Shown in pieces: positions 40 to 40,609 of a DNA stretch of 40,609 nt; within the stretch, counting starts at the first letter, position 1, and each line of letters opens with the position of its first letter. The notes under the pieces were generated by a model. It worked only from the letters and a program-made list of their open reading frames with translations. It was not told the DNA's origin and did not search any database. The DNA is from a virus (lineage: Duplodnaviria; Heunggongvirae; Uroviricota; Caudoviricetes): the IMG/VR virus record IMGVR_UViG_2778261163_000009. One strand, written 5' to 3'. Position numbers and translations under genes: made by a program.

Positions 40-402
40 GGGGCTGATTCTGGATTCGACGGGATTTGCGAAACCCAAGGTGCATGCCGAGGGGCGGTTG
101 GCCTCGTAAAAAGCCGCAAAAAATAGTCGCAAACGACGAAAACTACGCTTTAGCAGCTTAATAACCTGCTTAGAGCCCTCTCTCCCTAGCCTCCGCTCTT
201 AGGACGGGGATCAAGAGAGGTCAAACCCAAAAGAGATCGCGTGGAAGCCCTGCCTGGGGTTGAAGCGTTAAAACTTAATCAGGCTAGTTTGTTAGTGGCG
301 TGTCCGTCCGCAGCTGGCAAGCGAATGTAAAGACTGACTAAGCATGTAGTACCGAGGATGTAGGAATTTCGGACGCGGGTTCAACTCCCGCCAGCTCCAC
401 CA
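40..402 (+). ncRNA. ssrA: tmRNA (SsrA), complete, ending in CCA
   Basis: Begins GGGGCTGATTCTGGATTCGACGGG, contains the tag-coding region and ends with the tRNA-like acceptor arm ...GGTTCAACTCCCGCCAGCTCCACCA; matches the enterobacterial ssrA sequence from memory. Confidence 0.9.
358..402 (+). repeat. Left copy of 45-bp direct repeat (ssrA 3' end); prophage attachment core (attL)
   Basis: ATGTAGGAATTTCGGACGCGGGTTCAACTCCCGCCAGCTCCACCA occurs identically at 35175..35219. Confidence 0.8.
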
Positions 403-6200: not shown

Positions 6201-6332
6201 CTTTAATGCGTCACGGGAGTTTCTGATTGCGCCAGCCAGCTCTTTCGAACTGGCTTGTGCAGCACGGAATGGGCGGGTGAGTTTGTCAACCGCATTAAGA
6301 ATGACCTGCAGGCGCAGGTTGTTATCACTCAT
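3255..6332 (-). CDS. T: Tail tape measure protein T
   Basis: 1025 aa, coiled-coil N-terminus and Ala/Gly-rich hydrophobic central region; follows E/E'. Confidence 0.85.
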   Translation of the reverse strand: MSDNNLRLQVILNAVDKLTRPFRAAQASSKELAGAIRNSRDALKQLNQAGNSLEKFRKLQADNKKLGDRLNYARQKANLLSSELEAMEQPSQRHLVALGRQTLAVQRLEEQQKYLQKQTALVRAELYRAGISAKDDAGATARLARETSRYNQELSKQEARLKRLGEAQRRMNAARASYARSLEVRDRIAGAGATTTAAGLAMGTPVMAAVKSYTSIEDAMKGVAKQVNGLRDDNGNRTARFYEMQDAIKAASEQLPMENGAVDFAALVEGGARMNVANPDDSWEDQKRDLLAFASTAAKAATAFELPADELSESLGKIAQLYKIPTRNIEQLGDALNYLDDNAMSKGADIIDVMQRLGGVADRLDYRKAAALGSTFLTLGAAPEVAASAANAMVRELSIATMQSKSFFEGMNLLKLNPEVIEKQMTKDAMGTIQRVLEKVNALPQDKRLSAMTMLFGKEFGDDAAKLANNLPELQRQLKLTAGNDALGSMQKESDINKDSLSAQWLLVKTGAQNTFSSLGETLRQPLMDILYTVKSITGALRRWVEANPELTGTLMKVAAVVAAVTVGLGTLAVALAAVLGPLAVIRLGFSVLGIKTLPSVTAAVTRTSSALSWLAGAPLALLRRGLASSGNAAGLLTAPLSSLRRTASLTGNVLKTVAGAPVALLRSGLSGLRAVAVMFMNPLAALRGGLAAAGTVLRVLASGPLAMLRVALYAVSGLLGALLSPIGLVVTALAGVALVVWKYWQPITAFLGGVVEGFKAAAGPVSAAFEPLKPVFQWIGDKVQALWGWFTDLLTPVKSTSAELQSAAAMGRRFGEALAEGLNMVMHPLDSLKSGVSWLLEKLGIVSKEAAKAKLPERVTRQQPATVNADGKVMMPSGGFPSWGYGFAGMYDSGGYIPRGQFGIVGENGPEIVNGPANVTSRRNTAALAAVVAGMMGVAAAPAELPPLHPLALPAKGGEAMVSRAATVPPVHRIEAPTQIIIQMQPGQSAQDIAREVARQLDERERRLKAKARSNYSDQGGYDA

Positions 6333-6761
6333 CGTTGGCCCCGCTTCTCTGAATCGCTTTATACCGCCATTCCAGCACTTCGGTCAGCGGCATAACGTCA
6401 GTAACGGATGGCGGCCAGTGAAAAATGGTGGCGATATCTGCCACCAGATCGTCAACCGTCAGGCTGTCGGTAAACCGGCAAGCACCGACTTCTTCAACAA
6501 AAAAGTGACAACCTCAACCGACATGGCAGTGAGATCTGCCGGGTCCATCTCTGCAATTTCCTGTGCAGTCAGTGCCGGGCTGGAGATGCGGGGGATCACG
6601 GTCATCATCGCGTTCACATCCATATCCATAATGGCCTGCAGGCGTGTACCGCGCAGCGCACCGGACTGCGGTTTACGCAGCACAATTTCGGTGATTTCAG
6701 TTTTACCACGCATGATGGGAGTATCCAGTTGAATGGTCTTTTCAGTCTGCTTATCGCTCAT
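6325..6761 (-). CDS. Tail assembly chaperone E+E' made by programmed -1 frameshift
   Basis: Slippery heptamer T_TTT_TTG on the coding strand (+ coords 6498..6504) near the end of E; the -1 frame stays open to a TGA overlapping the T start codon (GATGAGTGA). Confidence 0.7.
6459..6761 (-). CDS. E: Tail assembly chaperone E
   Basis: 100-aa ORF immediately upstream of T; P2 gpE-like. Confidence 0.8.
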   Translation of the reverse strand: MSDKQTEKTIQLDTPIMRGKTEITEIVLRKPQSGALRGTRLQAIMDMDVNAMMTVIPRISSPALTAQEIAEMDPADLTAMSVEVVTFLLKKSVLAGLPTA

Positions 6762-6815
6762 TTTGCTGTCCTGTAAATTGGGTTCTGGCGCGGTATCCCG
6801 CGCCGTTCAGATAGA

Positions 6816-7331
6816 TCAGAGGCCGAGGGCGTTGCGGTGCGCTTCCATCAGGTCCACACCGTCCACAATTTCCACCATGTTGATAAGGTCCACTTCATAG
6901 AGCACCTCACCATTGATGGTCAGCTTCGCGTAGCTGTTGGTACTGGTCACTTTGGTGGTGTTGCTTTCGCCCGTCTTCCACTCGCCGGAATCCACTTCTT
7001 TGTGACGTCCACGCACCACAAGCTCCACGGCCTGCACTTCCCCGGTATCGTCACGCTGGATAGAGCCAGTAAAGCGCAGCTGGATGCCATCCACAGTGGC
7101 TTTGCCTATCTGCTTAAACAGCAGCAGTTCAGTACCACCAATGGAAAATTCTGTGTCCAGAGCACTGTCATCAAGCCCCAGATCCACATCCACCGCCCCC
7201 GGCATTCCGCCGCCGCGATACTTCTCATATTTGCGGGTGAATTTCGGCAGCGTCAGCGACTCAACGATCCCCTGCCAGTTGTTCCCGTCGTTAAACAGGT
7301 TCAGGTGTTTTAATTTGCGTGGTAAAGCCAT
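6816..7331 (-). CDS. FII: Tail tube protein FII
   Basis: 171 aa, P2 gpFII-like, downstream of the sheath gene. Confidence 0.85.
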   Translation of the reverse strand: MALPRKLKHLNLFNDGNNWQGIVESLTLPKFTRKYEKYRGGGMPGAVDVDLGLDDSALDTEFSIGGTELLLFKQIGKATVDGIQLRFTGSIQRDDTGEVQAVELVVRGRHKEVDSGEWKTGESNTTKVTSTNSYAKLTINGEVLYEVDLINMVEIVDGVDLMEAHRNALGL

Positions 7332-7340
7332 GTTGTCCCC

Positions 7341-8513
7341 TTACGCGCTGACCTGGCTGGAGAAATTCACCAGGTACTGATCGGTGATGCGCTGACGCAG
7401 CATCAGGTTTTCAAGTGGCGGCACTGGCGTGTAGTCGTAGTCGATGGTGAGCTTCCCGGCTTTCAGAGTATCTTTGTCGTTCACCGACTCATCCAGCCAG
7501 CAATCACCACCAATGAGATAGCCCTGACTGACCAGGCTGCGCATTTTGGCGCGGATACCTTCGATAATGTCGCGGGCCAACGACGGGTTCAGCGGTTTGT
7601 CCACCGCCCACATATGCGCTTCTGCCATTGTGTCCATAAGTACTTGCGCCGTGCGGGTGTAGTTTTCGAAGGCAAAGAGCGGGTCATCACTCAGGCAGCG
7701 GGAACCCCAGAAGCGGAAACCGTCTTTGCGGATAAGGGTGGTGACGTCGTTCTGGTTCAGCAGTCCCGCATCTGTTGCCGTGTCCTGCAGATCCCAGAAC
7801 ACATCAGCAGAAATTCCGGTGACACCGTTAACGCCCACGTTGGACAGGCTTTTGTGCCATCCGGTCTGCTCATCAATTTTGGCGCGCAGACCAAGCGCAC
7901 GGGCGGTGGCATAAGCCGTTGCTTCGGCATTCAGCACCGTGTCCCAGCCAGTAAAGTCGGGCCAGATCAGCATTCCTTCACGCTGACTGAAGTTTTCACG
8001 GTAAGTGATCGCCTCCTGCACTGTCTTGCAGCCATACGCTGACAGGTAAGCAAACCCACGCAGGCTTTGCGCCACGCTCAGCAACTCAGTAGCAACGGCT
8101 TTGTTATCGTGGCCTGGCACGCCGAGAATGCGCGGTTTAACGCCGAGCTGTGACTGTGCAGATAACAGAGCTTTCATGCCTGTTTTTTTACCTTCAGCAG
8201 TCACTGCGCCGATGATATTGGTCGTGGTTTCTTCTTCCGTTTCACCCTGCGGCACACGCACAACAACGGTCACGGGTTTTGCCTGGTCAGCGATGGCATC
8301 CAGCGAACGGGCCAGCGTGCCGGACTCACCCGCTTTACCGCTGGCAGTCAGCACATCAGTGATCAGCACGGGTTTATTAAGAGGAAACATTTTTGCATCG
8401 GCATCATCGCCCGTGCAGACCATACCCACGATGGCGGTGCTCACCGTGGTAATGGATCGGGTGCCTTCGTTGATTTCAACAACGCGCACCCCGTGGTGGT
8501 AATCCTGAGCCAT
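7341..8513 (-). CDS. FI: Contractile tail sheath protein FI
   Basis: 390 aa, P2 gpFI-like. Confidence 0.9.
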
Positions 8514-8589
8514 AGCGGCGAACCTCCTGATTGGATTAGGCTTCGCCCTATGTTGAAGTGATTGTGCCTGACAAACAGCTAAGCGCAGT

Positions 8590-8607
8590 TGTGTCGTTAT
8601 TCACACA
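8590..8607. promoter_or_regulatory. Ogr-type activator site (TGT-N12-ACA) of the late promoter upstream of FI
   Basis: TGTGTCGTTATTCACACA lies about 75 bp upstream of the FI start. Confidence 0.6.
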
Positions 8608-8655
8608 AAATGACGGTATTTGCCTACTTGCAGGGATAATCAAAATAATGCTGAT

Positions 8656-9225
8656 TCAGGGGGATTCATTGCTCTTATTTGCCGGAAATTTTCTATAAAT
8701 GGTAGAAACGCCTACATCAAAAATCAGTGCAATACGCTGTCTTGATTCTCCGGCCTCGAGTAAACGCCCAATCTGTGCCCACTGTTTGGTGGTCAACTTA
8801 GGACGGCGTCCACCTACTCTGCCTTTGGCACGAGCTGCAGCCAGCCCTGCCCTAGTACGTTCAACTATCAGTTCGCGTTCCATTTCAGCCAGGGCCCCCA
8901 TGACATGAAAAAAGAAACGGCCCATTGGGGTGCTGGTATCAATACTGTCAGTCAGGCTTCGGAAATTCACGCCACGCTGACGCAACTCTTCTATCAGCGT
9001 AACAAGATGCCGCATACTGCGCCCCAACCTGTCTAGCTTCCAGACAACCAGCGTGTCTCCTGCCGATAGTGTCCTGAGCAGTTTTTTCAGCCCCGGTCTG
9101 TCGGACTTAGTGCCACTGATTTTATCCTCAAAAATCCGCTCACATCCCGCGCAGTTCAGTGCATTACGTTGCAAATCGGTGTTCTGGTCATTTGTTGACA
9201 CGCGTACATAGCCAATAAGTATGAT
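8656..9225 (-). CDS. Gin/Pin/Hin-family serine DNA invertase; canonical start codon position is ATA
   Basis: Translation reads (I)LIGYVRVSTNDQNTDLQRNAL... and runs collinear with Pin/Gin through the C-terminal helix-turn-helix; the ORF track begins at GTG 9201, but homology continues 8 codons upstream to an ATA preceded by an AGGGGG ribosome-binding site. Confidence 0.8.
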   Translation of the reverse strand: MILIGYVRVSTNDQNTDLQRNALNCAGCERIFEDKISGTKSDRPGLKKLLRTLSAGDTLVVWKLDRLGRSMRHLVTLIEELRQRGVNFRSLTDSIDTSTPMGRFFFHVMGALAEMERELIVERTRAGLAAARAKGRVGGRRPKLTTKQWAQIGRLLEAGESRQRIALIFDVGVSTIYRKFPANKSNESP

Positions 9226-9249
9226 TATCCCCCTGAATAAAAACCGGGG

Positions 9250-9771
9250 ATGATGCCAGTTAGCTGTTACCTCTGCATTTTCTTAAACGTTGGTTTGGGA
9301 GAAGGCTCTGCATTACCTGTTGGTGTGCCTGTTCCATGGCCTTCAGCCACACCGCCAACAGGCTGGCTGAAATGCAACGGTGCGGCTTTTTCTGCTGAAG
9401 AATACCCGGAACTGGCAAAGGCTTATCCGACAAATAAATTGCCTGATTTACGTGGTGAGTTTATTCGTGGCTGGGATGACGGGCGCGGTATTGATGCAGG
9501 ACGTGTTTTATTGAGCATTCAGACAGGGATGCTGGAAAAGCACCGTCATCCTGTTGTCGCCAACGATGGGTATGACTCAAAAGAGGTATGGGAACTGGCG
9601 GCGATCTTCAGAAGAGCATATACACAGGGCAAGGGACTGGATGGTACCAGTGCAGGCGGAACTTTGATTCCATCACCAACGCTACATACACGAGGGAGTG
9701 TCGGTAATACTGGCGGGAGTGAAACCCGTCCACGAAATATTGCATTTAACTTTATCGTGAGGGCTGCATAA
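9250..9771 (+). CDS. Alternative tail-fibre C-terminal segment (silent copy, tail-collar-like)
   Basis: Encodes GLGEGS at the crossover site, then PVGVPVPWPSATPPTGWLKCNGAAF typical of tail-fibre receptor-binding tips; opposite strand to H. Confidence 0.7.
   Translation: MMPVSCYLCIFLNVGLGEGSALPVGVPVPWPSATPPTGWLKCNGAAFSAEEYPELAKAYPTNKLPDLRGEFIRGWDDGRGIDAGRVLLSIQTGMLEKHRHPVVANDGYDSKEVWELAAIFRRAYTQGKGLDGTSAGGTLIPSPTLHTRGSVGNTGGSETRPRNIAFNFIVRAA
9278..9303. repeat. Invertase crossover site (hix/gix-like 26 bp), left end of invertible segment
   Basis: TTTTCTTAAACG TT GGTTTGGGAGAA; the right half-site is the reverse complement of the left half-site of 11144..11169. Confidence 0.7.
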
Positions 9772-10379
9772 TGGATAACGCCGTATTAAATAGCGAGCTT
9801 ATTGCCACGAAGGCGGGGAATATTACAGTCTATAACTATGATGGTAAAACTCGGGAATATATTTCTACTTCAAATGAATATCTTGCCATTGGTGTCGGTA
9901 TCCCTGCATATTCCTGTCTGGATGAACCTGGTATACATAAGGCGGGTTATGCTATCTGCCGTTCGATGGATTTAAACTCATGGGAATATGTGCCAGACCA
10001 TCGCGGTGAAATCGTCTATAACACCGAAACGGGAGACGCCAAAGAAATCACAGCTCCGGGTGATTATCCTGAAAATACAACCACTATCGCCCCGTTAACG
10101 CCATTCGATAAATGGGATGGTAAGAAATGGGTGACCGATACTGAGGCACATCATAGCGCCGCAGTAGACGCGGCAGAAGCACAGCGTCAGTCACTGATTG
10201 ATACTGCAATGGCTTCCATCAGTCTGATTCAACTGAAATTGCAGGCCGGGCGGAAGCTGACGCAGGCAGAAACCACCCGACTTAACGCTGTGCTGGATTA
10301 CATTGACGCGGTGACGGCAACAGATACCAGCACCGCGCCGGATGTTATCTGGCCTGAACTGCCGGAGACTGCACAATAA
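9771..10379 (+). CDS. Tail fibre assembly chaperone for the alternative fibre tip
   Basis: 202 aa, start overlaps the preceding stop; a hairpin CCCTGCTG-TGTGT-CAGCAGGG follows at 10401..10424. Confidence 0.7.
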   Translation: MDNAVLNSELIATKAGNITVYNYDGKTREYISTSNEYLAIGVGIPAYSCLDEPGIHKAGYAICRSMDLNSWEYVPDHRGEIVYNTETGDAKEITAPGDYPENTTTIAPLTPFDKWDGKKWVTDTEAHHSAAVDAAEAQRQSLIDTAMASISLIQLKLQAGRKLTQAETTRLNAVLDYIDAVTATDTSTAPDVIWPELPETAQ

Positions 10380-10515
10380 ACTCACCATCAATATATAAAT
10401 CCCCCTGCTGTGTGTCAGCAGGGCATTCTTTCCATATTAATGATGGATGGAATCTTCCTTCAGGATTAATTTCCGTTATCTCTTCTACTTTATTTTCTTC
10501 AATTCTTGCCCACAT
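10345..10515 (-). CDS. Small ORF downstream of H (possible short tail-fibre assembly fragment)
   Basis: 57 codons, GGTGAGG ribosome-binding site 6 nt before ATG; overlaps the 3' end of the opposing assembly gene by 35 nt. Confidence 0.35.
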   Translation of the reverse strand: MWARIEENKVEEITEINPEGRFHPSLIWKECPADTQQGDLYIDGEFIVQSPAVQAR

Positions 10516-23456: not shown

Positions 23457-24155
23457 TTATTTGTTTCTTCTTTGTTCACGCCTTGTCTTGGCTTCGATAA
23501 GGCGTTGAGGTTCAGTGTAAAGCCGTTCTAAAAAAAGATAGGTAAAATCTTCAAGATCCTCAGCAGCAGCTTTATCCAAAATACCTTCATGCGCTCCATC
23601 ATTTCCGTCATCTTTAACGCATTCAGCTAGTTCCCTTAAAGCTTCAGGCAGTAGATGATTATCAAATAACCACTCCATTCTTAACCCTAGGCTTCTCCTT
23701 ATTTTTTGCGCAGGCCCTTGCTCCCCATCAGGAAGAAGTCCTTTTGTGGCATAATCAAGGCAAAGCCTAAACATGGTTGCTGCTGCATTATAACAACCTA
23801 TAGCCAAACATTTCGCCCCTTCCTCATATGCACTATTGATATGCTCAGGTAAGAACTCTGGTGGCTCCTCTACTGCTAAGTCTGCCGGTGATATAGGTCT
23901 AACAACCTCTGCAACTTCCTTTAAGCCGAATATTCCACTTTCCCAATTATAGTCATCTAAAGTTTTATTTTTCGTTAAAGGTCTGCAAAGAAAAATTGTC
24001 GTTTTATGACACTCTCGGCAAACACAATAGACCTCGTACTCGTATGTTTTACCCCCGCCCAATGCATTGTAAACCCTAGTGCAATTCAGCCCATTAACAT
24101 CAAACGCTATTTTTTGTGATCCACATCGTGGACAGTCATCCACTAACATAACCAT
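23457..24155 (-). CDS. Hypothetical zinc-ribbon protein (cargo between Q and cos)
   Basis: 232 aa, GGGAGGAG ribosome-binding site; N-terminal CPRCG...CVCRECH cysteine cluster; C-terminal acidic/His region (DDGNDGAHEG); AT-rich; no P2 counterpart at this position. Confidence 0.6.
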   Translation of the reverse strand: MVMLVDDCPRCGSQKIAFDVNGLNCTRVYNALGGGKTYEYEVYCVCRECHKTTIFLCRPLTKNKTLDDYNWESGIFGLKEVAEVVRPISPADLAVEEPPEFLPEHINSAYEEGAKCLAIGCYNAAATMFRLCLDYATKGLLPDGEQGPAQKIRRSLGLRMEWLFDNHLLPEALRELAECVKDDGNDGAHEGILDKAAAEDLEDFTYLFLERLYTEPQRLIEAKTRREQRRNK

Positions 24156-24444: not shown

Positions 24445-25056
24445 CTACGTAACCACAGTTAATGTGTGCATCCTGTTTCGAATTGCATCACACGTCTCAT
24501 CAAAAAGCTTGGTGATGGTTGTACGGTTCAACTCCGCCTCTTTCCAATAATTTTGCCCGTCAAATTCTGGATCGCTATGCTGAAACGATATTGACTCTGA
24601 AAGGCATTCCTTCCGGAAACGGTCCAAGATTATATAAACCTCTGGTGAGATGAACGGTTTGTTAGATTCAACACTTGTAACAAAAGTGTTAAATGCTTCA
24701 AAAAAAACTTTCAATCTTCTAAATTTTCTCTCTTCAAATGGTTCGTTGGGGTCAACATGATCCAGCGCAGGCCTCAGCTTAAGCACGCTTTCTCTGGTTT
24801 CAAACATCGAATTCCAAATGAGACTATATGCTGATAACTCCTTATCAAAATACGCTTTCGTTACATAAACAGAATTGTCTAACTTAGCCTTTATTCTTTC
24901 ATTAGTTGCACTCAGTTGTGATTGAAATTCAGCAATATCTTTGTTTAGCCGCGACTTATATCTTTCTAAATAAACTTTCCCGATCCAAACAAATATGCCA
25001 GATGCAACAAAAGACACCCCACCCAACGAAGCCAGAACTTTAAAGACTAAATCCAT
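24445..25056 (-). CDS. Hypothetical membrane-anchored protein (cargo between cos and the SOS module)
   Basis: 203 aa; AGGTGGGGG ribosome-binding site; TATAAT-like -10 box about 30 bp upstream; N-terminal transmembrane helix (LVFKVLASLGGVSFVASGIFVWI); AT-rich. Confidence 0.6.
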   Translation of the reverse strand: MDLVFKVLASLGGVSFVASGIFVWIGKVYLERYKSRLNKDIAEFQSQLSATNERIKAKLDNSVYVTKAYFDKELSAYSLIWNSMFETRESVLKLRPALDHVDPNEPFEERKFRRLKVFFEAFNTFVTSVESNKPFISPEVYIILDRFRKECLSESISFQHSDPEFDGQNYWKEAELNRTTITKLFDETCDAIRNRMHTLTVVT

Positions 25057-25104
25057 TGCGCCCCCACCTGCAAAAATAGTATTCCATTATAAGCTAATAC
25101 ATTT

Positions 25105-25365
25105 TTAATCAAACAGGAGATAATTCGCGTCAACCTCATCACTTCTCTGCTCTACCCTAGTGACTTCCATCAAAAACCCCAGGCCGTCATATAGCGAAAC
25201 GGGGAATTCCAGCTCAAGCCAGAAGCAGTCTTCATAGATGCGGCCCAACCAAAAACCTCCGCCACACTCCTTTGGGCGTTGAAAGAAGACCCAATCGCCA
25301 AGGGTAAACCGTTCCAGCACCTGGCCCCGATAAATAATCTGGTGATTACTGTCTTTTTTATCCAT
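25105..25365 (-). CDS. Hypothetical small protein (cargo)
   Basis: The ORF track starts at a TTG (25416); ATG at 25365 (MDKKDSNHQIIY...) with a GAGG ribosome-binding site is more plausible, giving 86 aa; no family recognised. Confidence 0.45.
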   Translation of the reverse strand: MDKKDSNHQIIYRGQVLERFTLGDWVFFQRPKECGGGFWLGRIYEDCFWLELEFPVSLYDGLGFLMEVTRVEQRSDEVDANYLLFD

Positions 25366-25438
25366 GGCTAACGCCTCGCTACTCTCGTTGTTCAACCTTG
25401 CTGACGTCAGATTCAAGTTCTTACATCAGGAACGTTCC

Positions 25439-25672
25439 TTAGTGCAGCCAGCTGTCGTCTTCCCAAACCTGTTGCATAATTTCCATCACCCGCTTTTTGT
25501 CTTCATCAAGCTTTAAGCCACTCAGCTCAACGCCGTTTGCCGACCCTTTACGGATGCGGATAGCGGTCTTTGGATAGATGGGTTGCAGGTTGCGGTAAAG
25601 CTCGGACTCCAGAGCGTCCAGGGTAGACTGGCTAATCTTCTGCTCTTTATCGATCATTATTTCAATGCGCAT
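25439..25672 (-). CDS. DinI-like protein (resembles the C-terminal part of the 186 Tum antirepressor)
   Basis: From MRIEIMIDK...; pattern MRIE(V/I)...LxxELxRxxxxxxP...EDKxRxxEIxQxxWExxxW matches E. coli DinI; GAGGTG ribosome-binding site. Confidence 0.7.
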   Translation of the reverse strand: MRIEIMIDKEQKISQSTLDALESELYRNLQPIYPKTAIRIRKGSANGVELSGLKLDEDKKRVMEIMQQVWEDDSWLH

Positions 25673-25682
25673 AAAAGTCACC

Positions 25683-25871
25683 TCAGCTGATGACATCCAT
25701 TGAGCTGTTGTATTCGTGGGTTCTGATTTTTGCCATGAGTTCATCTGTCAGTTCAGAAACCCACTGCAAAGCCAGCCCCTTCTCTTCATCACTACACTCA
25801 CTAGCCGCTACAAGCTTAAGAAAAAAATCAATGCGCTGGAGCTTCAAAGACTCCAAAAAATAGTCCTGCAT
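25683..25871 (-). CDS. Small ORF immediately upstream of the DinI-like gene
   Basis: 62 aa from MQDYFLESL with a GGAGG ribosome-binding site 5 nt upstream; stop lies 10 nt before the DinI-like ATG; the longer track ORF would span the LexA box. Confidence 0.5.
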   Translation of the reverse strand: MQDYFLESLKLQRIDFFLKLVAASECSDEEKGLALQWVSELTDELMAKIRTHEYNSSMDVIS

Positions 25872-25912
25872 CTTTCCTCCTATGACACCACAAGCAATAC
25901 TGTATACATAAC

Positions 25913-25932
25913 CACTGTTTATATTTACAGTA
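25913..25932. promoter_or_regulatory. LexA (SOS) box at the promoter of the small-ORF / DinI-like operon
   Basis: CACTGTTTATATTTACAGTA fits CTGT-N8-ACAG; a half-site CTGT lies 15 bp upstream (25900..25903). Confidence 0.7.
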
Positions 25933-26024
25933 TATAATAATCTTACTGATGTAAAACGTTTTTTTACGTTCATCAGCCTGATATGCCTGGTATTATTAAG
26001 AGCACGAATTGTTAACCCGCGTAA

Positions 26025-31533: not shown

Positions 31534-32166
31534 ATGATACAGGTAAAGGCTGGAGAGAATACAGGGGGAAGAGAGGCTATCCATAGACTAATGGCAGCCT
31601 ATGATTTCAAGTCCAGACAGCAACTTTGCGATCACTTAGGCGCATCAAAAAGCACCATGGCAAACAGATACTTAAGAGATAGTTTTCCTGCAGAGTGGGT
31701 GATTCAGTGCGCCTTGGAAACAGGAGTTTCTTTACTGTGGCTAACCACCGGACAGGGAGAGCCAGGTCCAAACATTAAACCTAAAAAAAATATCAATTCC
31801 GTGAACTCCAGCAAGGTTGTACCTCTTTCTGAACTAGTATCTCCTGAAATTGACAAGGCGACTCTCAACGGTGGTTTATTGGTCGATGCTGGAAAAGCAA
31901 TCATTGATAGCAGCATACTCCCCTCAGACTCAAGCAACCTACTGCTGGTGACTACTTCTGGTGATTCTTATTTAATAGATCGCAACCAAACACCACCAGT
32001 AAATGGTATGTGGTTAGTCGATATCGACGGGATAAAAAGCATTGTTAAATTGACTCGGCTCCCGGGAAACAAATTAGTAGTGCATCAGGATGATTCATCG
32101 TTTGAGTGCGGTCTGGATGACATTGAGGTAGTAGGCCGCGCACTGAAAATCATTAAGAGCCTTTGA
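31534..32166 (+). CDS. cI: Immunity repressor CI (186-type)
   Basis: 210 aa; N-terminal helix-turn-helix and C-terminal region resemble 186 CI (..CALETG..L.WL.TG.GE... LPG.KL.V). Confidence 0.8.
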   Translation: MIQVKAGENTGGREAIHRLMAAYDFKSRQQLCDHLGASKSTMANRYLRDSFPAEWVIQCALETGVSLLWLTTGQGEPGPNIKPKKNINSVNSSKVVPLSELVSPEIDKATLNGGLLVDAGKAIIDSSILPSDSSNLLLVTTSGDSYLIDRNQTPPVNGMWLVDIDGIKSIVKLTRLPGNKLVVHQDDSSFECGLDDIEVVGRALKIIKSL

Positions 32167-32167
32167 T

Positions 32168-33181
32168 ATGACCATCAGAAAACAGCCGAACGGAAAATGG
32201 TTGTGTGAGTGCTATCCCAATGGACGCAATGGCAAGCGCGTGCGTAAGCAATTTGCTACGAAAGGCGAAGCCATTGCGTTTGAAAGCTTCACAATGGAAG
32301 AAGTGAATAAAAAACCGTGGTTGGGTGAAAAGGATGATCGGCGACGCCTATCAGAATTAATTGAGCTTTGGTATTCCCTGTATGGTCAAACACTCGCAGA
32401 CCCCAAGCGCCTCATGGCGAAACTTAGAATTATCTGTAATGGTCTAGGCGATCCCATCGCCTCAGAACTGACAGCTGGTGACTTTACAAAATACCGCGAA
32501 GCACGGTTAAAAGGTGAAATACGAAATGAAGATGGCACACTTATGTCGCCCGTAAAGCCCCGTACGGTAAACCTTGAACAGCGCAATCTATCATCTGTGT
32601 TCGGTACATTAAAAAAACTAGGACACTGGTCAGCACCAAACCCGCTGGCAGGACTTCCGACCTTCAAAATTGCCGAAGGTGAGCTGGCTTTTCTTTCCAC
32701 GGACGAAATCAAGCGCCTGTTGGCGGCATGTGCTGAATCTCAAAACCCTAGCTTACTAATGATTGCAAAAATATGCCTAGCTACTGGCGCACGGTGGAGT
32801 GAAGCCGAAAATCTGCAGGGCCACCAAATATCGAAATACCGAATTACTTATACAAAAACAAAAGGCAAGAAAAACAGAACAGTACCCATATCACAGGAGC
32901 TGTATGACGAACTCCCAAAGAACAGAGGGAAGTTATTCTCACCATGTAGAAAAGCCTTTGAACGAGCAGTAAAACGGGCAGGTATAGATCTACCGGATGG
33001 CCAATGCACCCACGTGCTGCGACATACGTTTGCTAGCCACTTTATGATGAATGGCGGGAACATACTTGTGCTAAGGGATATTTTGGGACATTCGGATATC
33101 AAGATGACCATGGTTTACTCACATTTCTCACCAGATCATCTTGAAGATGCCGTTACTAAGAACCCATTAAACTTGATATAA
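32168..33181 (+). CDS. int: Tyrosine integrase (P2/186 type)
   Basis: 337 aa; C-terminal catalytic region HVLRHTFAS...LGHSDIKMTMVYSHF with the R-H-R-Y tetrad; directly follows cI. Confidence 0.9.
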   Translation: MTIRKQPNGKWLCECYPNGRNGKRVRKQFATKGEAIAFESFTMEEVNKKPWLGEKDDRRRLSELIELWYSLYGQTLADPKRLMAKLRIICNGLGDPIASELTAGDFTKYREARLKGEIRNEDGTLMSPVKPRTVNLEQRNLSSVFGTLKKLGHWSAPNPLAGLPTFKIAEGELAFLSTDEIKRLLAACAESQNPSLLMIAKICLATGARWSEAENLQGHQISKYRITYTKTKGKKNRTVPISQELYDELPKNRGKLFSPCRKAFERAVKRAGIDLPDGQCTHVLRHTFASHFMMNGGNILVLRDILGHSDIKMTMVYSHFSPDHLEDAVTKNPLNLI

Positions 33182-33194
33182 AACAGCCAAAATT

Positions 33195-34952
33195 CTATTT
33201 CATCAAGTAATCCAATTCATCCTTCATAGGTATAACTTGCTCATAAAGTCTATGGTAGGATTTTCCAATTGCCCCCCTAAATTGAATAAGTTTAGGGGAA
33301 AAGCTACCGATATTAATAATATGTTCTTGCGCTATACCAGGATATGGATCGATAAAAATAATCTCTGTCATACCTAACTGATAAGCTTTTTTAGCACAAA
33401 GTTCACAAGGGCTAGCTGTAGTATATAGTTTCCCTCCATTAATACCGACCCCACCATATTTGGCCAATTGCAAAAAAGCATTCTCCTCTGCGTGCAATGC
33501 ACGGGTATGCACTTGATTCCCTTTCTTTTCATCATCAAGGCTGTTGTGAATATCTTTAAAACAATATGGCAAATTAAGTCCTTTAAAAACAGTAGAACTT
33601 GAATCACTCGCCCTTATTTTTATTAAATTTTCTTTAACTTTACTCCTAAATTTTGTATTACTTCGTTCGTACAGGCTATATGTTCCCTCATCAAAATCAT
33701 GCAATAACCCATCAAATGACCTCATAGAACAAGGAACTTGACCTTTTGCTACATCGTTCCAACCAACTGACTTGATAGAGTTATCATTATCTGTCACAAC
33801 CGCCCCTACTTGCCTAGATATACATCCAGAATTTAGTTTTACAGTATATGCAACTTGCATAACCCTTTCCATGGCGGTAGGAGATATTAATCCAGGGTGT
33901 TGCATTAATGATACATACCACGCAATTTGTGCTTTGAGAAAGTTATTATTATCAAATTCTTTTTTAGGGTTAAAAAAATGTATATCTGAAATTTCAATGC
34001 ATTTTTTTACATTAGGATTAGTAAGATGATTATACTCGCCATCTCCTTTACCAGATTCTTCATCATTAATTTTTTTTATCTGTTCCTCTGAGAACTTATG
34101 TAATTTCTTTAAATATCTGGTTCGATGTTCATCTGGTGCATTTATAGAAACCAGATGGAATGCAGCATATCTATCTTTGAAGAATTTAGCTTCATACGGG
34201 TTACGTATCGCATCAATGACTATATACGCTTTATTATTCTTTACTTTTCTAATTATTTTAATAACACGATTAATTGTTTCAGGTAAATGAAAAACAGCCT
34301 TTGGAATAAAGTCTTGATTTTCATAATCTACATCAACCTTCCCTATTCTTCTAATTGACTTTCCTGCTGACTGATATAGCTCAATATATAAACCTGGCTC
34401 TAGTTCATTTAATTCCCTTTTAAAATCCCGTGTAAATTTTCGAGTAAGAGTTAATATCCTAATAAAGGTATCTTTCCCCCTGCCTTTAAAGTCAATCTCA
34501 TCATCATGATTAAGAAGATTTTTTATCACCTTAAGATATTTTATCTTCAACAAACTTTTAGCGAACACACCATTAACAACCAGTTTCTTAGCTGCCTTAA
34601 AGGAAATCGAATTTTCTTTTTTATCGGGGATTTTACTTGCAGAAAACTGAATGAATTTAGCTAAGGCCGATGGAGATAAAAGGAGCAAATATATTGAAAT
34701 GAGATCACTGACCTTTATCGAATAGAAGTTCTTCCAATGAGTCTCTGCAAAATTTTTTACTATTTCATAACGCCGCAAATCCAATCCTTTATAATACTCA
34801 GCCAAGACGTTACTATCTGGAAAAGATATTTCTTTTTGTTCTAAAATATTTGCTGCAGTAGTACATCCTGAGCCAGTTCTCCCAGTTAAACCAATAAGAA
34901 TAAATTGACTATTTTCTAAAAAAAGCTCACTAATAAATTTGTGTTCTCTCAT
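33195..34952 (-). CDS. P-loop NTPase/kinase-like plus zinc-dependent cytidine/deoxycytidylate deaminase fusion (AvcD / dCTP-deaminase-like defence protein)
   Basis: 585 aa; N-terminal Walker-A-like ILIGLTGRTGSGCTT; C-terminal deaminase signature HTRALHAEENA ... ASPCELCAKK (H-A-E and P-C-x-x-C zinc ligands); AT-rich; sits between int and attR. Confidence 0.6.
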   Translation of the reverse strand: MREHKFISELFLENSQFILIGLTGRTGSGCTTAANILEQKEISFPDSNVLAEYYKGLDLRRYEIVKNFAETHWKNFYSIKVSDLISIYLLLLSPSALAKFIQFSASKIPDKKENSISFKAAKKLVVNGVFAKSLLKIKYLKVIKNLLNHDDEIDFKGRGKDTFIRILTLTRKFTRDFKRELNELEPGLYIELYQSAGKSIRRIGKVDVDYENQDFIPKAVFHLPETINRVIKIIRKVKNNKAYIVIDAIRNPYEAKFFKDRYAAFHLVSINAPDEHRTRYLKKLHKFSEEQIKKINDEESGKGDGEYNHLTNPNVKKCIEISDIHFFNPKKEFDNNNFLKAQIAWYVSLMQHPGLISPTAMERVMQVAYTVKLNSGCISRQVGAVVTDNDNSIKSVGWNDVAKGQVPCSMRSFDGLLHDFDEGTYSLYERSNTKFRSKVKENLIKIRASDSSSTVFKGLNLPYCFKDIHNSLDDEKKGNQVHTRALHAEENAFLQLAKYGGVGINGGKLYTTASPCELCAKKAYQLGMTEIIFIDPYPGIAQEHIINIGSFSPKLIQFRGAIGKSYHRLYEQVIPMKDELDYLMK

Positions 34953-35174
34953 TTCGCACCTGTTACGTTATAACACAAGTTTCTTCCATGTTGTATTTAT
35001 TAGTATTTATTAAAAAACAAGAAATTGCAACATAGCGGCAACAATACACACACCAAGAAAATGGCGGCAACTTGGCGGCAGAGCTTTAAAAACGTATAAA
35101 ACGGATAAACACAAAACAATACCAACCAACTGTTTTTGAAAACAAATTATTGTTTTCATTATAATATAAATGGT

Positions 35175-35219
35175 ATGTAGGAATTTCGGACGCGGGTTCA
35201 ACTCCCGCCAGCTCCACCA
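35175..35219 (+). repeat. Right copy of 45-bp direct repeat (ssrA 3' fragment); prophage attR and boundary to the next island
   Basis: Identical to 358..402. Confidence 0.8.
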
Positions 35220-35255: not shown

Positions 35256-35287
35256 GCCCACACAGCACAAGCTCTGCGGGCTTTTTT
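35256..35287 (+). terminator. Rho-independent terminator following the ssrA 3' fragment
   Basis: GCCCACACAGC / GCTCTGCGGGC imperfect stem followed by TTTTTT. Confidence 0.5.
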
Positions 35288-35384
35288 ACGTCTATTGTCG
35301 TCCAGTGAGAATTGCTGAGAACTACGAGTTATGGCACCCTGAATGGGACCCACTAAGAAGGGTCCAAAAACCGAGGGTCCCAAA

Positions 35385-36614
35385 ATGGCAAAAATCGCTA
35401 AGAAGCTCACTGACACTGAAATCAAAAGCACCAAGCCAGCCGATAAAGAAATCAACTTGTTTGACGGTGATGGTCTGATTCTACGAATCGCTCCTTTGGC
35501 GAAAGGAGGCAAGAAAAATTGGTATTTCAGGTATGCAGTACCAGTGAGCAAGAAAAGAACCAAAATGAGCCTTGGGACATATCCTCACCTTACCCTTGCA
35601 AGAGCCAGAGCCTTACGTGATGAATATCTCTCCTTTCTGGCAAATGGTGTTGATCCCCAAATCCATAACAACGATAAGGCGAAGGCATTAAAGAGTGCTA
35701 CTGAGCACACTCTCCAAGCCGTAGCGCGGAAATGGTTAGATGAGAAGGTAAAGACATCAGGTATCTCACAAGACCATGCAGCAGACATCTGGCGCAGCTT
35801 AGAGAGAAATGTCTTTCCCGGTCTGGGTAATGTCCCTATCAATGAGATCCGACCTAAGCTCTTAAAACAACACCTTGATCCTATTGAGCAACGAGGCGTA
35901 TTGGAAACTCTACGCCGTATCATTTCACGTCTGAATGAAATCTTCCGGTGGGCAGCTACTGAAGAACTTATTGAGTTCAACCCGGCTGACAACCTTGGTC
36001 AAAGATTCAGTAAACCAAAAAAGCAAAATATGCCTGCCCTTCCCCCAAGCGAATTGCCAAGGTTTATGGAATCTTTGACGAATGCGTCAATCCGGTTGGA
36101 AACACGTATGCTAATTGAATGGCAATTGTTGACATGGGTTCGTCCGGGTGAAGCCGTTCGCGCAAGGTGGTCTGATATTGATACAACCAACAGCATTTGG
36201 AACATTCCTGCTGATTTCATGAAAATGAAAAAGCTTCACAAAGTTCCTTTGAGTAAAGAAGCTTTGCGCATCCTTGAATTAATGAAATCAATAAGTGGGC
36301 ATAGAGAATGGGTTTTCCCCAGCATAAAAGCGCCTCTTAATCATATGCATGAACAAACAGCCAACGCAGCTATCATCCGAATGGGGTTCGGAGGCGAGCT
36401 TGTAGCTCACGGTATGCGTTCTATTGCACGAACAGCGGCAGAGGAGTCTGGTAAATTCAGAGCTGAAGTTCTTGAGGCAGCGCTTGCCCACTCGAAAAAA
36501 GATGAAATTATCGCAGCATACAATCGTGCAGAATATCTGATAGAGCGACAGAGTTTGATGCAATGGTGGAGTGATTACGTTCAAGCTCAAAGATCAAATG
36601 CTCTGGTAGCCTAA
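35385..36614 (+). CDS. P4-family tyrosine integrase (IntA/CP4-57-like)
   Basis: From MAKIAKKLTDTEIKSTKP...DGDGL.LRI... which resembles E. coli IntA; C-terminal catalytic region with HGMRS and AYNRAEY; the ORF track starts 14 codons earlier. Confidence 0.8.
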   Translation: MAKIAKKLTDTEIKSTKPADKEINLFDGDGLILRIAPLAKGGKKNWYFRYAVPVSKKRTKMSLGTYPHLTLARARALRDEYLSFLANGVDPQIHNNDKAKALKSATEHTLQAVARKWLDEKVKTSGISQDHAADIWRSLERNVFPGLGNVPINEIRPKLLKQHLDPIEQRGVLETLRRIISRLNEIFRWAATEELIEFNPADNLGQRFSKPKKQNMPALPPSELPRFMESLTNASIRLETRMLIEWQLLTWVRPGEAVRARWSDIDTTNSIWNIPADFMKMKKLHKVPLSKEALRILELMKSISGHREWVFPSIKAPLNHMHEQTANAAIIRMGFGGELVAHGMRSIARTAAEESGKFRAEVLEAALAHSKKDEIIAAYNRAEYLIERQSLMQWWSDYVQAQRSNALVA

Positions 36615-36652
36615 GTATCAGAATAGCTAATATAATCCTGAAGGTAAAGAAA

Positions 36653-37069
36653 ATGGAAACCCTATTCAAAGTTTTTGAAAAATTTAGTTCCAGACCACTT
36701 TTTTTTATTTTTTTCGGACTCTCACTTTGTGAATTTTTTCAGAAACAATCTGTTCTGATGAATCCATCAGCAGATAACATCGCGAAATTATTCGCAGCCA
36801 TGATATTAGTTGTTTTTTTTACTTGGGGATTTGAATGGCTAATCTTCAAGTTCAATGTAAACCTTGAACCTCATGATCAAGGCGATATTGGACCAACAAT
36901 TGGAACGGCTACTTTAGCTGTATACTTAGTTTATGCCTTTCACTTTCTCAGTGAAAATCCTGAAGCATTAAATTTAAAGTTATTAACTAACTCTGGCTTT
37001 ATATACAGCACAACTCTATTATTATTCTCATTAGAATGCATGAAGCTTAGAAGACTTAAACAAAAATAA
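36653..37069 (+). CDS. Hypothetical small multi-pass membrane protein
   Basis: 138 aa with three to four hydrophobic helices; 39 bp after int on the same strand; AT-rich. Confidence 0.5.
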   Translation: METLFKVFEKFSSRPLFFIFFGLSLCEFFQKQSVLMNPSADNIAKLFAAMILVVFFTWGFEWLIFKFNVNLEPHDQGDIGPTIGTATLAVYLVYAFHFLSENPEALNLKLLTNSGFIYSTTLLLFSLECMKLRRLKQK

Positions 37070-37140
37070 ACAACATCATTGTGATGATAAATATAAAATA
37101 GGCATGGCGAAAAAAAATCACCACGCCTAAAATATAATAA

Positions 37141-38907
37141 TTATGGTAGCATCATTGATACATAATCCACACCAATCCTTGAGCTATACTGAGACGCTAT
37201 AGCCTGATATCTTTCTGCATAACCAGTTCTCAGTTGAGATTTAAGTTTGAGTCGGACAGGAACATTTTGCACGTTGCCATCCATATTACTTAAAAACACG
37301 GCAGAAATAATATTTTTTTCTTCGCCATCAACTGTTGTTCCATGATTCAACACCACCATATAATCAACAACAGGAAGCGTTTTATCCCCTTCGAAAATAG
37401 AGAGATATTTTCTTTGATTTTTATGCATTACATATATATATTTCGAATGTTCAGCAAATGGCAATGCTTTACTCTGACTGGCGTTAAAAAGCTCCAGAAC
37501 TTTAATGAGCCTGTGCGGACTTAATCTTACATGGTGAGGGTCGTTACCCTGAGTAGGAACCAAATCACATGCCGCAGATACACATAAATACCATTTGTTC
37601 GACTCTGTATCAAAGAAAATAGTGCCAGTAGAAATATGACCATCTTCAAAATTCTTTGAAGACAAATTCATATTTAAAGCATGATACATTTCGTGATAAG
37701 TATCATTATTTGATGGCAGATCCATTTTTGAAGAGCAATATTGGAGCAATGCAGCAACTCCGCTGTTAGCGTATTCATTTGAATAGCTATCAAAAACACT
37801 TTTGATAAATTCATCCAGCGTATTATTATTTTTAAGTCTTTGATAAAGCTCTTCTGATAAATTACCAAATACAAAGTCAATATTTCTACATCTAATATCA
37901 GGCGAGTCTGATTTTAATATCTCATTTAACCACGCAGCTTGACCGTAATGATCGTTAGCCAAATGATTTACAAAAGATAAAGCCTCAGCTTCGATTGCAT
38001 TCTGAATTTCAGATTTTATTAACTGATAATAAGATGGTTTCCATTCAATGAGAGAATCATTGAGAGTTTGCCAAATCCTATCTCCATCGTTTTCATGATC
38101 ATCTTGAACCTTATGAAATAGGGAGACAAAGATATTACCACATTGAATCCATTTTACTCCGCTTTCATCACCCCGAATGACATTGCCAGATGTGTTGCTA
38201 GAAATAATTGCATTTCTAGACACAGCATATTCTGCAATCATTTTTGCAATGAAGTTTTTATCCTTTTGATCCTCCAACACAGCATCATCATGTATTAATC
38301 TTTTAATTCTTCTACAAGGCTTACTGTCTTTAATATAGGCTATTGTTTCATCTCTTGTGAGAGCTTTATTACCATTATCATTTAAGTTCGGTAATACAAC
38401 GTCTTCCCAATAACTTTGGACATCTTCATTATCGTAGTCAATGATCAAGCTGTTGATATCCAGAGCACCTTTGAGAGTCGATGATATCTGCATCCAAACC
38501 GTTTCTAAATTCTCTCTAGTATATATTACAATCATATTTAAATGATCGGAGTCTTTCAAATCTTGTAATAGTTTAAGTGTTTTATCAGGTGCATTATTAT
38601 CAAGATGATAATCTACAATAATAAGATCTGATTTTCTAATCCGATCCACATCGAAATTAACAGAACCATTGTCAACATCACAAATCATATTTTTAGATTG
38701 AAAAAAGCTCTCAAGAGTAGCGGCTCGTTTAGATGAGTCAATTTTGTTGTAGTCTAAATCAACTTCGTTATTCAACGCCCTGATTGATTCAGAATACGTC
38801 AGAAAATCGTCATCAATCATGACAACGGAACGAATTGCATTTTCGCAGAAAGTTTTCTGGACAAGAGAATTATAATTTGCCACTGTCATATTAGAACTCC
38901 ACTCCAT
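37141..38907 (-). CDS. Response-regulator receiver domain protein with a large uncharacterised C-terminal output domain
   Basis: 588 aa; N-terminal receiver-like motifs VVMIDDD (acidic pocket), DLIIVDYHL (phospho-acceptor Asp), MIVIYT (Thr); about 430 aa of unassigned C-terminal sequence; start overlaps the upstream kinase gene by 17 nt. Confidence 0.55.
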   Translation of the reverse strand: MEWSSNMTVANYNSLVQKTFCENAIRSVVMIDDDFLTYSESIRALNNEVDLDYNKIDSSKRAATLESFFQSKNMICDVDNGSVNFDVDRIRKSDLIIVDYHLDNNAPDKTLKLLQDLKDSDHLNMIVIYTRENLETVWMQISSTLKGALDINSLIIDYDNEDVQSYWEDVVLPNLNDNGNKALTRDETIAYIKDSKPCRRIKRLIHDDAVLEDQKDKNFIAKMIAEYAVSRNAIISSNTSGNVIRGDESGVKWIQCGNIFVSLFHKVQDDHENDGDRIWQTLNDSLIEWKPSYYQLIKSEIQNAIEAEALSFVNHLANDHYGQAAWLNEILKSDSPDIRCRNIDFVFGNLSEELYQRLKNNNTLDEFIKSVFDSYSNEYANSGVAALLQYCSSKMDLPSNNDTYHEMYHALNMNLSSKNFEDGHISTGTIFFDTESNKWYLCVSAACDLVPTQGNDPHHVRLSPHRLIKVLELFNASQSKALPFAEHSKYIYVMHKNQRKYLSIFEGDKTLPVVDYMVVLNHGTTVDGEEKNIISAVFLSNMDGNVQNVPVRLKLKSQLRTGYAERYQAIASQYSSRIGVDYVSMMLP

Positions 38908-40609
38908 TGAACTGGATCACAAAATTAGCGCCATCTTTTATTAAATAGTTATCGCCTTCATCAGGTTCTGAATACCATATTTTATGATGTGCAACAGCAA
39001 GGTTTTCTCGACATAGATACAGACCTACCCCATGTCCATTTGCTCTTTTGCTATAAAATAGTTCAAATAGTCGCGGGATATCATCGGTATCAATTGCCGG
39101 ACCAGAATTTGCTATGATAACCAAAGAATTCACAAAACCAATCTTTATGAGCCTATTATTTGACAGACTGACCCAATACATTGCATTGTTGATAATATTA
39201 GTAAAAACAGGATAGATCCTTGATGGTATATCTGTTATTGCGATTTGCTTAAACTCTTCACTAAATTCAATAGTTATTCGTTGCCGTTCGAAACGCTCCC
39301 CAAAGAACTTCAGGACATAATCCATGATATTTTTTCCAGTTATTCTCTGCCTGGATTGATAACCTGATATTTTCAAAGGTGATAAGAAACGTATTTGTTG
39401 AGTAAGCGATCTGTGAGCATTTAACGCCAATGAAAAACCAGGGTGTTCTTTTACAGAAGTAGGAAGAGAGTTTAGTCCTCTGGTTACCATAGAATCCATT
39501 TCTTCAAGTTCATGAGATATTATCTCAACACTAATACCTAACTGTGCAAGCGCGTTTAAACTTTTAGCTTTTTCTTCAAAATATGAGCGTTCTTCTTCAG
39601 ATAATGAGAATGCTGAATCTAAGTTTATACCTTCAAATAATCTATCGAGACCTTTTATTATTGATTGATATTTGAAAGTTAGGGTATCAACTGACTCAAC
39701 ATATAAACTATCGAGCAAATTAAACACATTTTCAATTTGTGAATCATTATCTATTGAATCAACAACTGATATAGTTTTAGCATAATAATCACTTCGATCA
39801 ACCTTTATTTCATCGGCCCATTTTTTTAAAAGAGAATGTATCTTCTCCTCTATCGTGTTATTAAACTTAGTTAGTTTAGAATTAATAATACCTTGATTTT
39901 TTTCAAGGTGATTTTTCGCTGACAATGAAGGCTCAAGTTTATTTAATTCAGAATCAAGTTTATTAATTGCTAACTTCATTTGTAGAATATACGCAGAGAA
40001 CTCATTAAATTTATCTCTGTAGTCTCTATATTTCTCTTCATACATTCCAAGTTTTGGAGGTTTGATAGGCGTTTTAATTTCACTGCGCAACGCATCTAAG
40101 TTTGTAAGATCACTGTCTATAATTTTAAGATAGTTTAAATCTAACGAACCATCAGTTTTATCAAGCTTAGTTTTCAGCCTTTTAACAGCCTCCAAGGAAG
40201 CATCAAGAACTGGTGTCTGATTCTTCAAAGCTTCTGAAAAACTTTTTTGTGTTGATTTTCGAGCTTGTTGTTGAGCAGATTTTCTTAACTCTTTTTCACG
40301 CTTAACTTGTTCTAAAAGCTCTTTACGGTCATCAGAACGTGAACCAAAAAATCTATCAGCAAGTTCAGTTAACAAATTAGATATAATAGTTTTCAGTTCT
40401 CTTGCAGCCTGGTTTCTTATGAATCCCTCTCTCCCCGACTTATCTTTCAGCTCTTTATTACTGGATTGAGTAATTCCAATATAACCAAAAATCCTTCTAT
40501 TAGACCAATAATATCGCCCTGCATTCCATGAACGTCTTTCTTCTATCTGGAAGAAATCATTATCTACTCGACCATAAGGTAATACTCTCAAGCTATCCCT
40601 AAAAATCAT
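38891..40609 (-). CDS. Histidine kinase (HisKA + HATPase_c), probably N-terminally truncated by the window edge
   Basis: H-box EIISHELEEMD; ATP-binding N box FTNIINNAMYW, G1 NSGPAID, G2 GHGVGL; long coiled-coil region upstream; ORF runs to the last base of the window. Confidence 0.65.
   Translation of the reverse strand: MIFRDSLRVLPYGRVDNDFFQIEERRSWNAGRYYWSNRRIFGYIGITQSSNKELKDKSGREGFIRNQAARELKTIISNLLTELADRFFGSRSDDRKELLEQVKREKELRKSAQQQARKSTQKSFSEALKNQTPVLDASLEAVKRLKTKLDKTDGSLDLNYLKIIDSDLTNLDALRSEIKTPIKPPKLGMYEEKYRDYRDKFNEFSAYILQMKLAINKLDSELNKLEPSLSAKNHLEKNQGIINSKLTKFNNTIEEKIHSLLKKWADEIKVDRSDYYAKTISVVDSIDNDSQIENVFNLLDSLYVESVDTLTFKYQSIIKGLDRLFEGINLDSAFSLSEEERSYFEEKAKSLNALAQLGISVEIISHELEEMDSMVTRGLNSLPTSVKEHPGFSLALNAHRSLTQQIRFLSPLKISGYQSRQRITGKNIMDYVLKFFGERFERQRITIEFSEEFKQIAITDIPSRIYPVFTNIINNAMYWVSLSNNRLIKIGFVNSLVIIANSGPAIDTDDIPRLFELFYSKRANGHGVGLYLCRENLAVAHHKIWYSEPDEGDNYLIKDGANFVIQFNGVEF

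Follow-up and report, generated by a model that had tools for sequence, protein, structure and literature searches.

An anti-phage dCTP deaminase gene as cargo between the integrase gene and attachment site of a Peduoviridae prophage at ssrA

Introduction

What is the function of a long, AT-rich gene that lies between the integrase of a prophage and its attachment site, and does the unusual P-loop of its product indicate a working enzyme or a damaged one? These questions are raised by a 585-aa open reading frame with an ATG start in the ORF listing (33195..34952, minus strand) of a 40,609-nt stretch of viral DNA (IMG/VR record IMGVR_UViG_2778261163_000009), which we refer to throughout as the window. 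On sequence evidence, the gene is an ordinary and correctly recognised member of the known anti-phage dCTP deaminase family. It is very probably an accessory gene that a Peduoviridae prophage, integrated at ssrA, carries in its integrase-att slot, where an AvcD-like enzyme of the kind described by Tal et al. and Hsueh et al. would protect the lysogen by depleting dCTP. Much of this is already known: the identical protein is named in RefSeq, and the family, its P-loop peculiarity and the genomic hotspot have all been published.

Family membership and domain architecture

The gene product matches profiles from three collections. In PADLOC it matches the dCTPase model (E = 2.2e-146), and its NCBIfam score for the equivalog NF041025, ‘anti-phage dCTP deaminase’, is 420.5 bits, above the curated threshold of 400 (E = 7.5e-126), with model positions 1-437 aligned to residues 17-577. 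Both matches are far beyond chance. Pfam assigns residues 361-533 to dCMP_cyt_deam_1 (E = 4.8e-15) and returns the kinase families AAA_18, CoaE and Cytidylate_kin2 at the N-terminus, all sub-threshold. The protein is 75% identical (84% positives) over its full length to the validated defence enzyme of E. coli AW1.7 (WP_045268677.1, 576 aa). An earlier note on this DNA had read the gene from its letters as a kinase-deaminase fusion of the AvcD/dCTP-deaminase type and had proposed profile searches against deaminase and AvcD models; the searches, the identity to the AW1.7 enzyme and the structure model described below all bear this reading out.

The window protein is 100% identical to RefSeq WP_001206704.1 of E. 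coli 300709, which lies in the same genomic context. The gene occurs in 7 of 5426 complete E. coli genomes at 99.6-99.8% nucleotide identity, from varied hosts and countries, and all seven name its product ‘anti-phage dCTP deaminase’. The family is large: 4383 of the 8000 candidates scored match at E <= 1e-5, and most of the 450 representatives obtained by 50% clustering at E <= 1e-30 align over both domains. By the criterion of Tal et al., a member is a single chain longer than 350 aa that has a kinase-like domain at its N-terminus and a cytidine/dCMP deaminase domain at its C-terminus. The window protein has this layout. The same authors place the V. cholerae gene in the same family (preprint 10.1101/2021.04.26.441389).

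An AlphaFold2 model built from 112 homologs (mean pLDDT 78.8, pTM 0.77) consists of an NMP-kinase-like domain followed by a dCMP-deaminase domain, and Foldseek is in agreement. The N-terminal domain comprises residues ~6-351 (33900..34937, minus strand); in the model, large helical insertions enlarge a kinase-like core of ~170 residues to ~350 residues. The zinc-dependent dCMP/dCTP deaminase domain comprises residues ~357-560 (33273..33884, minus strand). Sequence and fold searches of the PDB returned no solved structure of a full-length family member.

Within the C-terminal domain, the HAEENA motif starts at residue 487 (33477..33494, minus strand) and aligns with the HAE of the T4 and S-TIM5 dCMP deaminases; His487 is a zinc ligand and Glu489 the catalytic base. 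The PCELC motif starts at residue 515 (33396..33410, minus strand) and aligns with the PCxxC of solved dCMP deaminases, with Cys516 and Cys519 as the other zinc ligands. Both motifs are invariant among the homologs aligned, as are all seven cysteines of the window protein. By analogy with characterised relatives, this domain would carry out zinc-dependent deamination through these four residues.

The same likeness raises the alternative that the gene encodes a phage nucleotide-metabolism enzyme comparable to the T4 Cd dCMP deaminase, which would supply dUMP for dTTP during prophage replication. The deaminase domain is indeed homologous to the enzymes of T4, S-TIM5 and PBCV-1, and T4 Cd (1VQ2), S-TIM5 (4P9C), S. 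mutans (2HVV) and PBCV-1 bi-DCD (7FH4) share its fold and zinc motifs. However, these single-domain proteins lack the kinase-like domain, function in dTTP biosynthesis rather than defence, and have 20-30% identity to the window protein over ~130-150 aligned residues. Phage enzymes of this kind are ~130-190 aa long and match only residues ~360-540, at 27-30% identity, whereas the two-domain protein passes the anti-phage equivalog and closely resembles a validated defence enzyme. Among 50,697 deposited phage genomes no full-length homolog occurs, only dCMP-deaminase-domain matches at 27-30% identity; the gene is thus known from prophages only. It is, moreover, foreign and AT-rich, and sister prophages have other cargo in its place (see below). 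A metabolic role in phage replication is therefore highly improbable, and defence through dCTP depletion remains our preferred reading.

A cysteine in place of the Walker A lysine

The N-terminal domain carries a P-loop-like motif, GLTGRTGSGCTT, at residues 21-32 (34857..34892, minus strand). Its core, GRTGSGCTT, has Cys30 where the Walker A consensus GxxGxGK[ST] has the catalytic lysine, so that the protein departs from the canonical P-loop NMP kinases (adenylate, cytidylate and dephospho-CoA kinases) at the residue that defines them. A separate explanation for the gene is that it once served in defence and is now inactive or in decay. Its 8-residue insertion, absent from the 576-aa class, would fit decay. 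Against this, the reading frame is full length, all family-invariant residues are intact, and the seven E. coli genomes maintain the gene nearly unchanged across different hosts and countries. We regard decay as the least credible of the explanations considered here, and a functional defence enzyme as by far the better one.

The cysteine is not specific to this copy. Across 112 homologs, the most distant at 57% identity, residues G21-T31 of the motif do not vary and T32 hardly does; genomic loci with as little as 38% identity, some of them in Firmicutes, also have the motif. A survey of the lysine position in 150 representatives of 50% clusters gave cysteine in all 89 strict motif matches. Looser matches have mostly cysteine, with occasional threonine, serine, tyrosine, valine, leucine or alanine, and none of the motif matches in these 150 representatives has lysine.

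Published mutants indicate that the motif matters. In the AW1.7 enzyme, which shares the G29/C30 numbering with the window protein, G29A + C30A abolished both defence and dCTP depletion (Tal et al., preprint 10.1101/2021.04.26.441389). The ‘zinc’ mutant of that enzyme in the same preprint is C370A/C401A, which corresponds to C377/C408 in the window protein (offset 7). In V. cholerae AvcD the Walker A substitution S52K is inactivating (Hsueh et al., preprint 10.1101/2021.03.31.437871). All residues essential in the AW1.7 enzyme are present and invariant here, namely G29, C30, C377, C408, H487, E489, C516 and C519 in window numbering. Family-wide retention of the cysteine and the inactivation caused by G29A/C30A and S52K together make the non-lysine P-loop a required hallmark of the family, not a copy-specific defect. 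The earlier note was thus right that Walker A lacks its lysine; the feature is not peculiar to this gene, being conserved throughout the family, and its importance was shown in AW1.7. The N-terminal domain is needed for activity in relatives and, by extension, most likely serves nucleotide binding or regulation here, not phosphotransfer. Despite its kinase-like fold, it should not be filed as an active or canonical kinase.

Prophage boundaries and genomic context

The window begins with an intact tmRNA gene (40-402; ARAGORN, Rfam) whose last 45 nt (358..402, plus strand) form the attL core. A perfect copy of this ssrA 3′ end at 35175..35219 (plus strand) forms the attR core, and the two delimit a prophage of 34.8 kb. 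The integrase gene (32168..33181, plus strand; Pfam Int_N and Phage_integrase) encodes a tyrosine integrase, and its counterpart in E. coli 300709 is annotated as a site-specific integrase. Upstream of it in the lysogenic operon lies a gene for a 186-type CI repressor (31534..32166, plus strand; Pfam Phage_CI_repr and Phage_CI_C). Other regulatory genes are also of 186 type (CII/CP76, Fil and an 80-aa protein that RefSeq names a Rha family regulator), and the backbone matches Escherichia phage Cartapus (Peduoviridae, Elveevirus) at 96% identity, with 86% of a 25-kb query covered.

Between the deaminase gene and attR there is no further gene, and the deaminase ATG lies 222 bp from the att core. 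The earlier placement of the gene as cargo between int and attR is upheld by the direct repeat that bounds the prophage, and its reported abutment on the integrase gene from the opposite strand is exact. The stop codons of the two convergent genes are separated by 13 bp (33182-33194). The AT-richness that had been remarked on is also evident: GC content is 0.332 in the deaminase gene, 0.455 in int and 0.552 in the backbone and structural region (2000-23000). A standard promoter and terminator scan found no terminator-like site 3′ of the deaminase gene. Its transcription may run antisense into the int-cI lysogenic operon (32168-33195), and, in a reading that we consider doubtful, such apparently unterminated convergent transcription might couple expression of the defence gene to that operon.

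An outward-facing, strong sigma-70 consensus match (TTGAAA-18-TATAAT, 11 of 12 positions; 35136-35165, plus strand) crosses the ssrA 3′ copy at attR and faces a remnant of the ssrA terminator at 35269-35283. If active, this candidate promoter would transcribe a 3′ tmRNA fragment; it may be a chance match in AT-rich DNA.

The integrase-att slot and its other occupants

The interval between integrase and att site is a variable cargo site in ssrA-integrating Peduoviridae. In Cartapus it holds a RES-domain gene, and in further E. coli prophages that share the att-proximal sequence it is filled by unrelated genes for hypothetical proteins of 222-418 aa. Three further dCTP deaminase alleles use the same slot in related ssrA-linked prophages: one in Citrobacter braakii (83% amino acid identity), one of 577 aa (70% identity; 20 E. 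coli genomes at >97% nucleotide identity) and one of 580 aa (4 E. coli genomes). P2/P4 hotspots were described by Rousset et al. 2022 (PMC9122126), and an integrase-att slot that holds 3% of P2-borne defence systems was reported for P2-like phages (NAR 2026, PMC13586616). This is the slot occupied here, filled with other cargo in sister prophages; the main text of the latter paper does not mention dCTP deaminase. The window gene is convergent with int, in contrast to the alternative slot cargos examined, which are co-oriented with it.

Other E. coli settings of the family are the tRNA-Phe island of AW1.7, an ICE in LF82 and an island with a serine recombinase. The att-delimited prophage of the window adds to a pattern in which alleles lie in prophages, an ICE and islands, as expected of a family located on mobile elements or in defence islands. 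In loci L085-L089 (~5800-10500), a 70%-identical allele (P0055, from a 90%-identity cluster of 228 member sequences) adjoins a degenerate ssrA 3′ copy in a ~4.5-kb remnant beside smpB from which int and CI have been lost. The remnant looks like what is left of a prophage end after decay, with the defence gene retained.

Relation to AvcID and the upstream leader

Two of the closest described systems differ from the window gene in several respects. The AW1.7 enzyme (Tal et al. 2022) has the same two-domain architecture, G29/C30 motif, HAE, PCxxC and NCBIfam equivalog; the window protein is longer (585 vs 576 aa), with its 8-residue insertion at ~107-114. The AW1.7 gene lies in its tRNA-Phe integrative island behind a 524-bp upstream intergenic region, whereas the window gene lies in a prophage integrase-att slot behind a 222-bp leader. 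In V. cholerae, the deaminase of the AvcD-AvcI pair (VC0175 and the AvcI/DifV sRNA; Hsueh et al. 2022) likewise joins a P-loop-kinase domain to a dCMP-deaminase domain. AvcD is 532 aa long; compared by description, its Walker A mutant is S52K and the window protein has cysteine at the lysine position. AvcD deaminates both dCTP and dCMP, requires both domains, and becomes active when transcription stops and its labile inhibitor AvcI decays; AvcI is an RNA of 152-174 nt directly 5′ of avcD on the same strand, within a 504-nt intergenic region (10.1101/2021.03.31.437871). An AvcID system is defined by such an RNA of ~150-300 nt, co-transcribed with the deaminase gene and acting on the enzyme post-translationally.

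An AvcID-like arrangement here would allow the gene to act mainly in prophage addiction, as a toxin-antitoxin module in which a labile leader RNA neutralises the deaminase, loss of the element poisons the cell, and any anti-phage effect is secondary. AvcD relatives are toxic without AvcI and behave like type III toxin-antitoxin systems (10.1101/2021.03.31.437871). Survival of the gene in the decayed ssrA-adjacent remnant, without int and CI, is also in keeping with addiction. The composition of the leader bears directly on this alternative.

The leader has two parts. The part next to the gene, ~107 nt long (34953..35059, minus strand), is cassette-specific: it is conserved only with the 83%-identical allele (locus L082) and differs in other alleles. 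The 115 nt proximal to the att core (35060..35174, minus strand), which contain a repeated TGCCGCCA, are conserved in five deaminase-allele lineages and matched in 143 of 5426 E. coli genomes, compared with 44 in which deaminase alleles were detected. Four representatives of the 143 were examined, and all have other cargo in the slot and no annotated deaminase, so this stretch is best read as a phage attP arm, which it probably is in the window. An RNA gene as the sole cause of att-proximal conservation was considered and rejected, because the same 115 nt occur in prophages with other cargo.

Promoter evidence in the leader consists of consensus matches. A standard scan found no minus-strand promoter there. 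In a relaxed scan, each of the five lineages has a proximal candidate 39-52 nt from its ATG; the one in the window is 49 nt away and reads TTGCAA-17-AATACT (35002-35030, minus strand). A second, distal candidate falls within the arm in L082, in L091 and in the window (35116-35142, minus strand). The distal candidate in the window would give a leader of ~155-160 nt, near the length of AvcI, which is a point in favour of addiction.

Searches for the RNA itself gave no positive evidence. At gathering thresholds Rfam finds only tmRNA in the window and no AvcI-like RNA; the predicted folding of the 222-nt leader is not better than that of shuffled versions (z = -1.24); RNAalifold over the five att-linked lineages gives 0 pairs; and when the leader is compared by BLAST with the upstream regions from 80 homologous loci, no significant similarity appears. 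An AvcI equivalent was thus not found in the leader by folding, covariation or comparison among cargos. AvcI homologs lack mutual sequence similarity (Hsueh et al., preprint 10.1101/2021.03.31.437871), so absence of an equivalent cannot be concluded from these results. The E. coli H10407 (ETEC) AvcD-AvcI pair of Hsueh et al. was not among the nucleotide-level matches.

Beyond the missing structure signal, three observations count against addiction: the distal part of the leader occurs in prophages that lack the gene, the unrelated cargo in the same slot of sister prophages is more in keeping with a defence hotspot than with a role in maintenance, and close relatives protect against phages. Addiction as the main role is accordingly unlikely, though less so than the metabolic and decay explanations, and anti-phage defence is the reading with which we continue.

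The short leader invites a further suggestion. Because only ~107 nt of cassette-specific sequence precede the gene, the prophage-borne clade could work without an AvcI-type RNA antitoxin, a proposal that we consider doubtful. If true, it would place restraint of the enzyme elsewhere, for example in a nucleotide-sensing Cys P-loop domain or a short leader element. The nature of any inhibitor is suggested here by characterised relatives.

The AW1.7-type allele has its own upstream conservation. Approximately 250 nt are conserved across Escherichia, Yersinia and Buttiauxella (L090 4735-4994; L003 and L004 3741-4000), with a conserved TTAATTAAC-TGTTGATTTTTTT element and a small 5′-UTR hairpin that has some compensatory changes. 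The region contains only short hairpins with weak covariation. It could be the AvcI-equivalent region of that clade.

Proposed mechanism and significance

Characterised relatives turn dCTP and dCMP into deoxyuridine nucleotides on infection, which starves phage DNA synthesis (10.1101/2021.04.26.441389). T7 escape mutants map to gene 5.7, the product of which inhibits host RNA polymerase (Tal et al., 10.1101/2021.04.26.441389), and escape from the companion dGTPase system was more complete in double mutants of 5.7 and 0.7 (10.1101/2021.04.26.441389). By analogy, the enzyme would be made in the lysogen and held inactive until a superinfecting lytic phage shuts off host transcription. It would then be released and would deaminate dCTP and dCMP to dUTP and dUMP, so that the deoxycytidine pool is emptied and phage DNA replication stalls. 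Both the activity and the trigger in this scheme are those of the relatives, and they would probably protect the lysogen from lytic phages in the same way.

P2/186-type phages depend on host RNA polymerase, and shut-off of host transcription is not known for them. This could explain how such a phage carries the gene without self-harm. The locus adds one more temperate phage with host-protective cargo in the integrase-att slot and has little significance beyond correct annotation. A compact cassette of this kind could nevertheless help to address family-level questions, including the role of the Cys-substituted kinase-like domain and the need for an RNA antitoxin in E. coli-type enzymes.

Other cargo and elements in the window

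The prophage has AT-rich cargo at other positions. A block between the portal gene and gpA (23457-24155, minus strand, and 24445-25973) occupies the classic P2 tin/old hotspot. It encodes a DUF4145 protein with a weak PADLOC match to PD-T7-4 (E = 9e-7), ORFs of 203 and 103 aa without family match, a 96-aa ORF and a DinI-like gene; Cartapus, too, has a DUF4145 gene, which adjoins its cos site.

A second integrative element follows directly after attR (35343-40609), which indicates tandem insertions at ssrA. After its P4-type integrase gene (35343-36614) come a 138-aa ORF without family match (36653-37069) and, on the minus strand, a pair of AT-rich genes (GC 0.34). One gene of the pair encodes a Response_reg_2 protein (37141-38907); the other encodes a HEF_HK/HATPase_c histidine-kinase-like protein (38891-40609), and its ORF boundary coincides with the end of the window. 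The pair has no match in PADLOC, follows the prophage in other E. coli strains too, and may be a conflict or defence system that is not yet characterised.

A 237-aa ORF with a GC content of 0.32 (576-1289, plus strand) is found immediately interior to attL, across the att site from the deaminase gene; Pfam and PADLOC give no match for it. In Cartapus this position is taken by a different gene, annotated as ‘putative exonuclease’, and the attL-side position may be a second att-flanking cargo slot.
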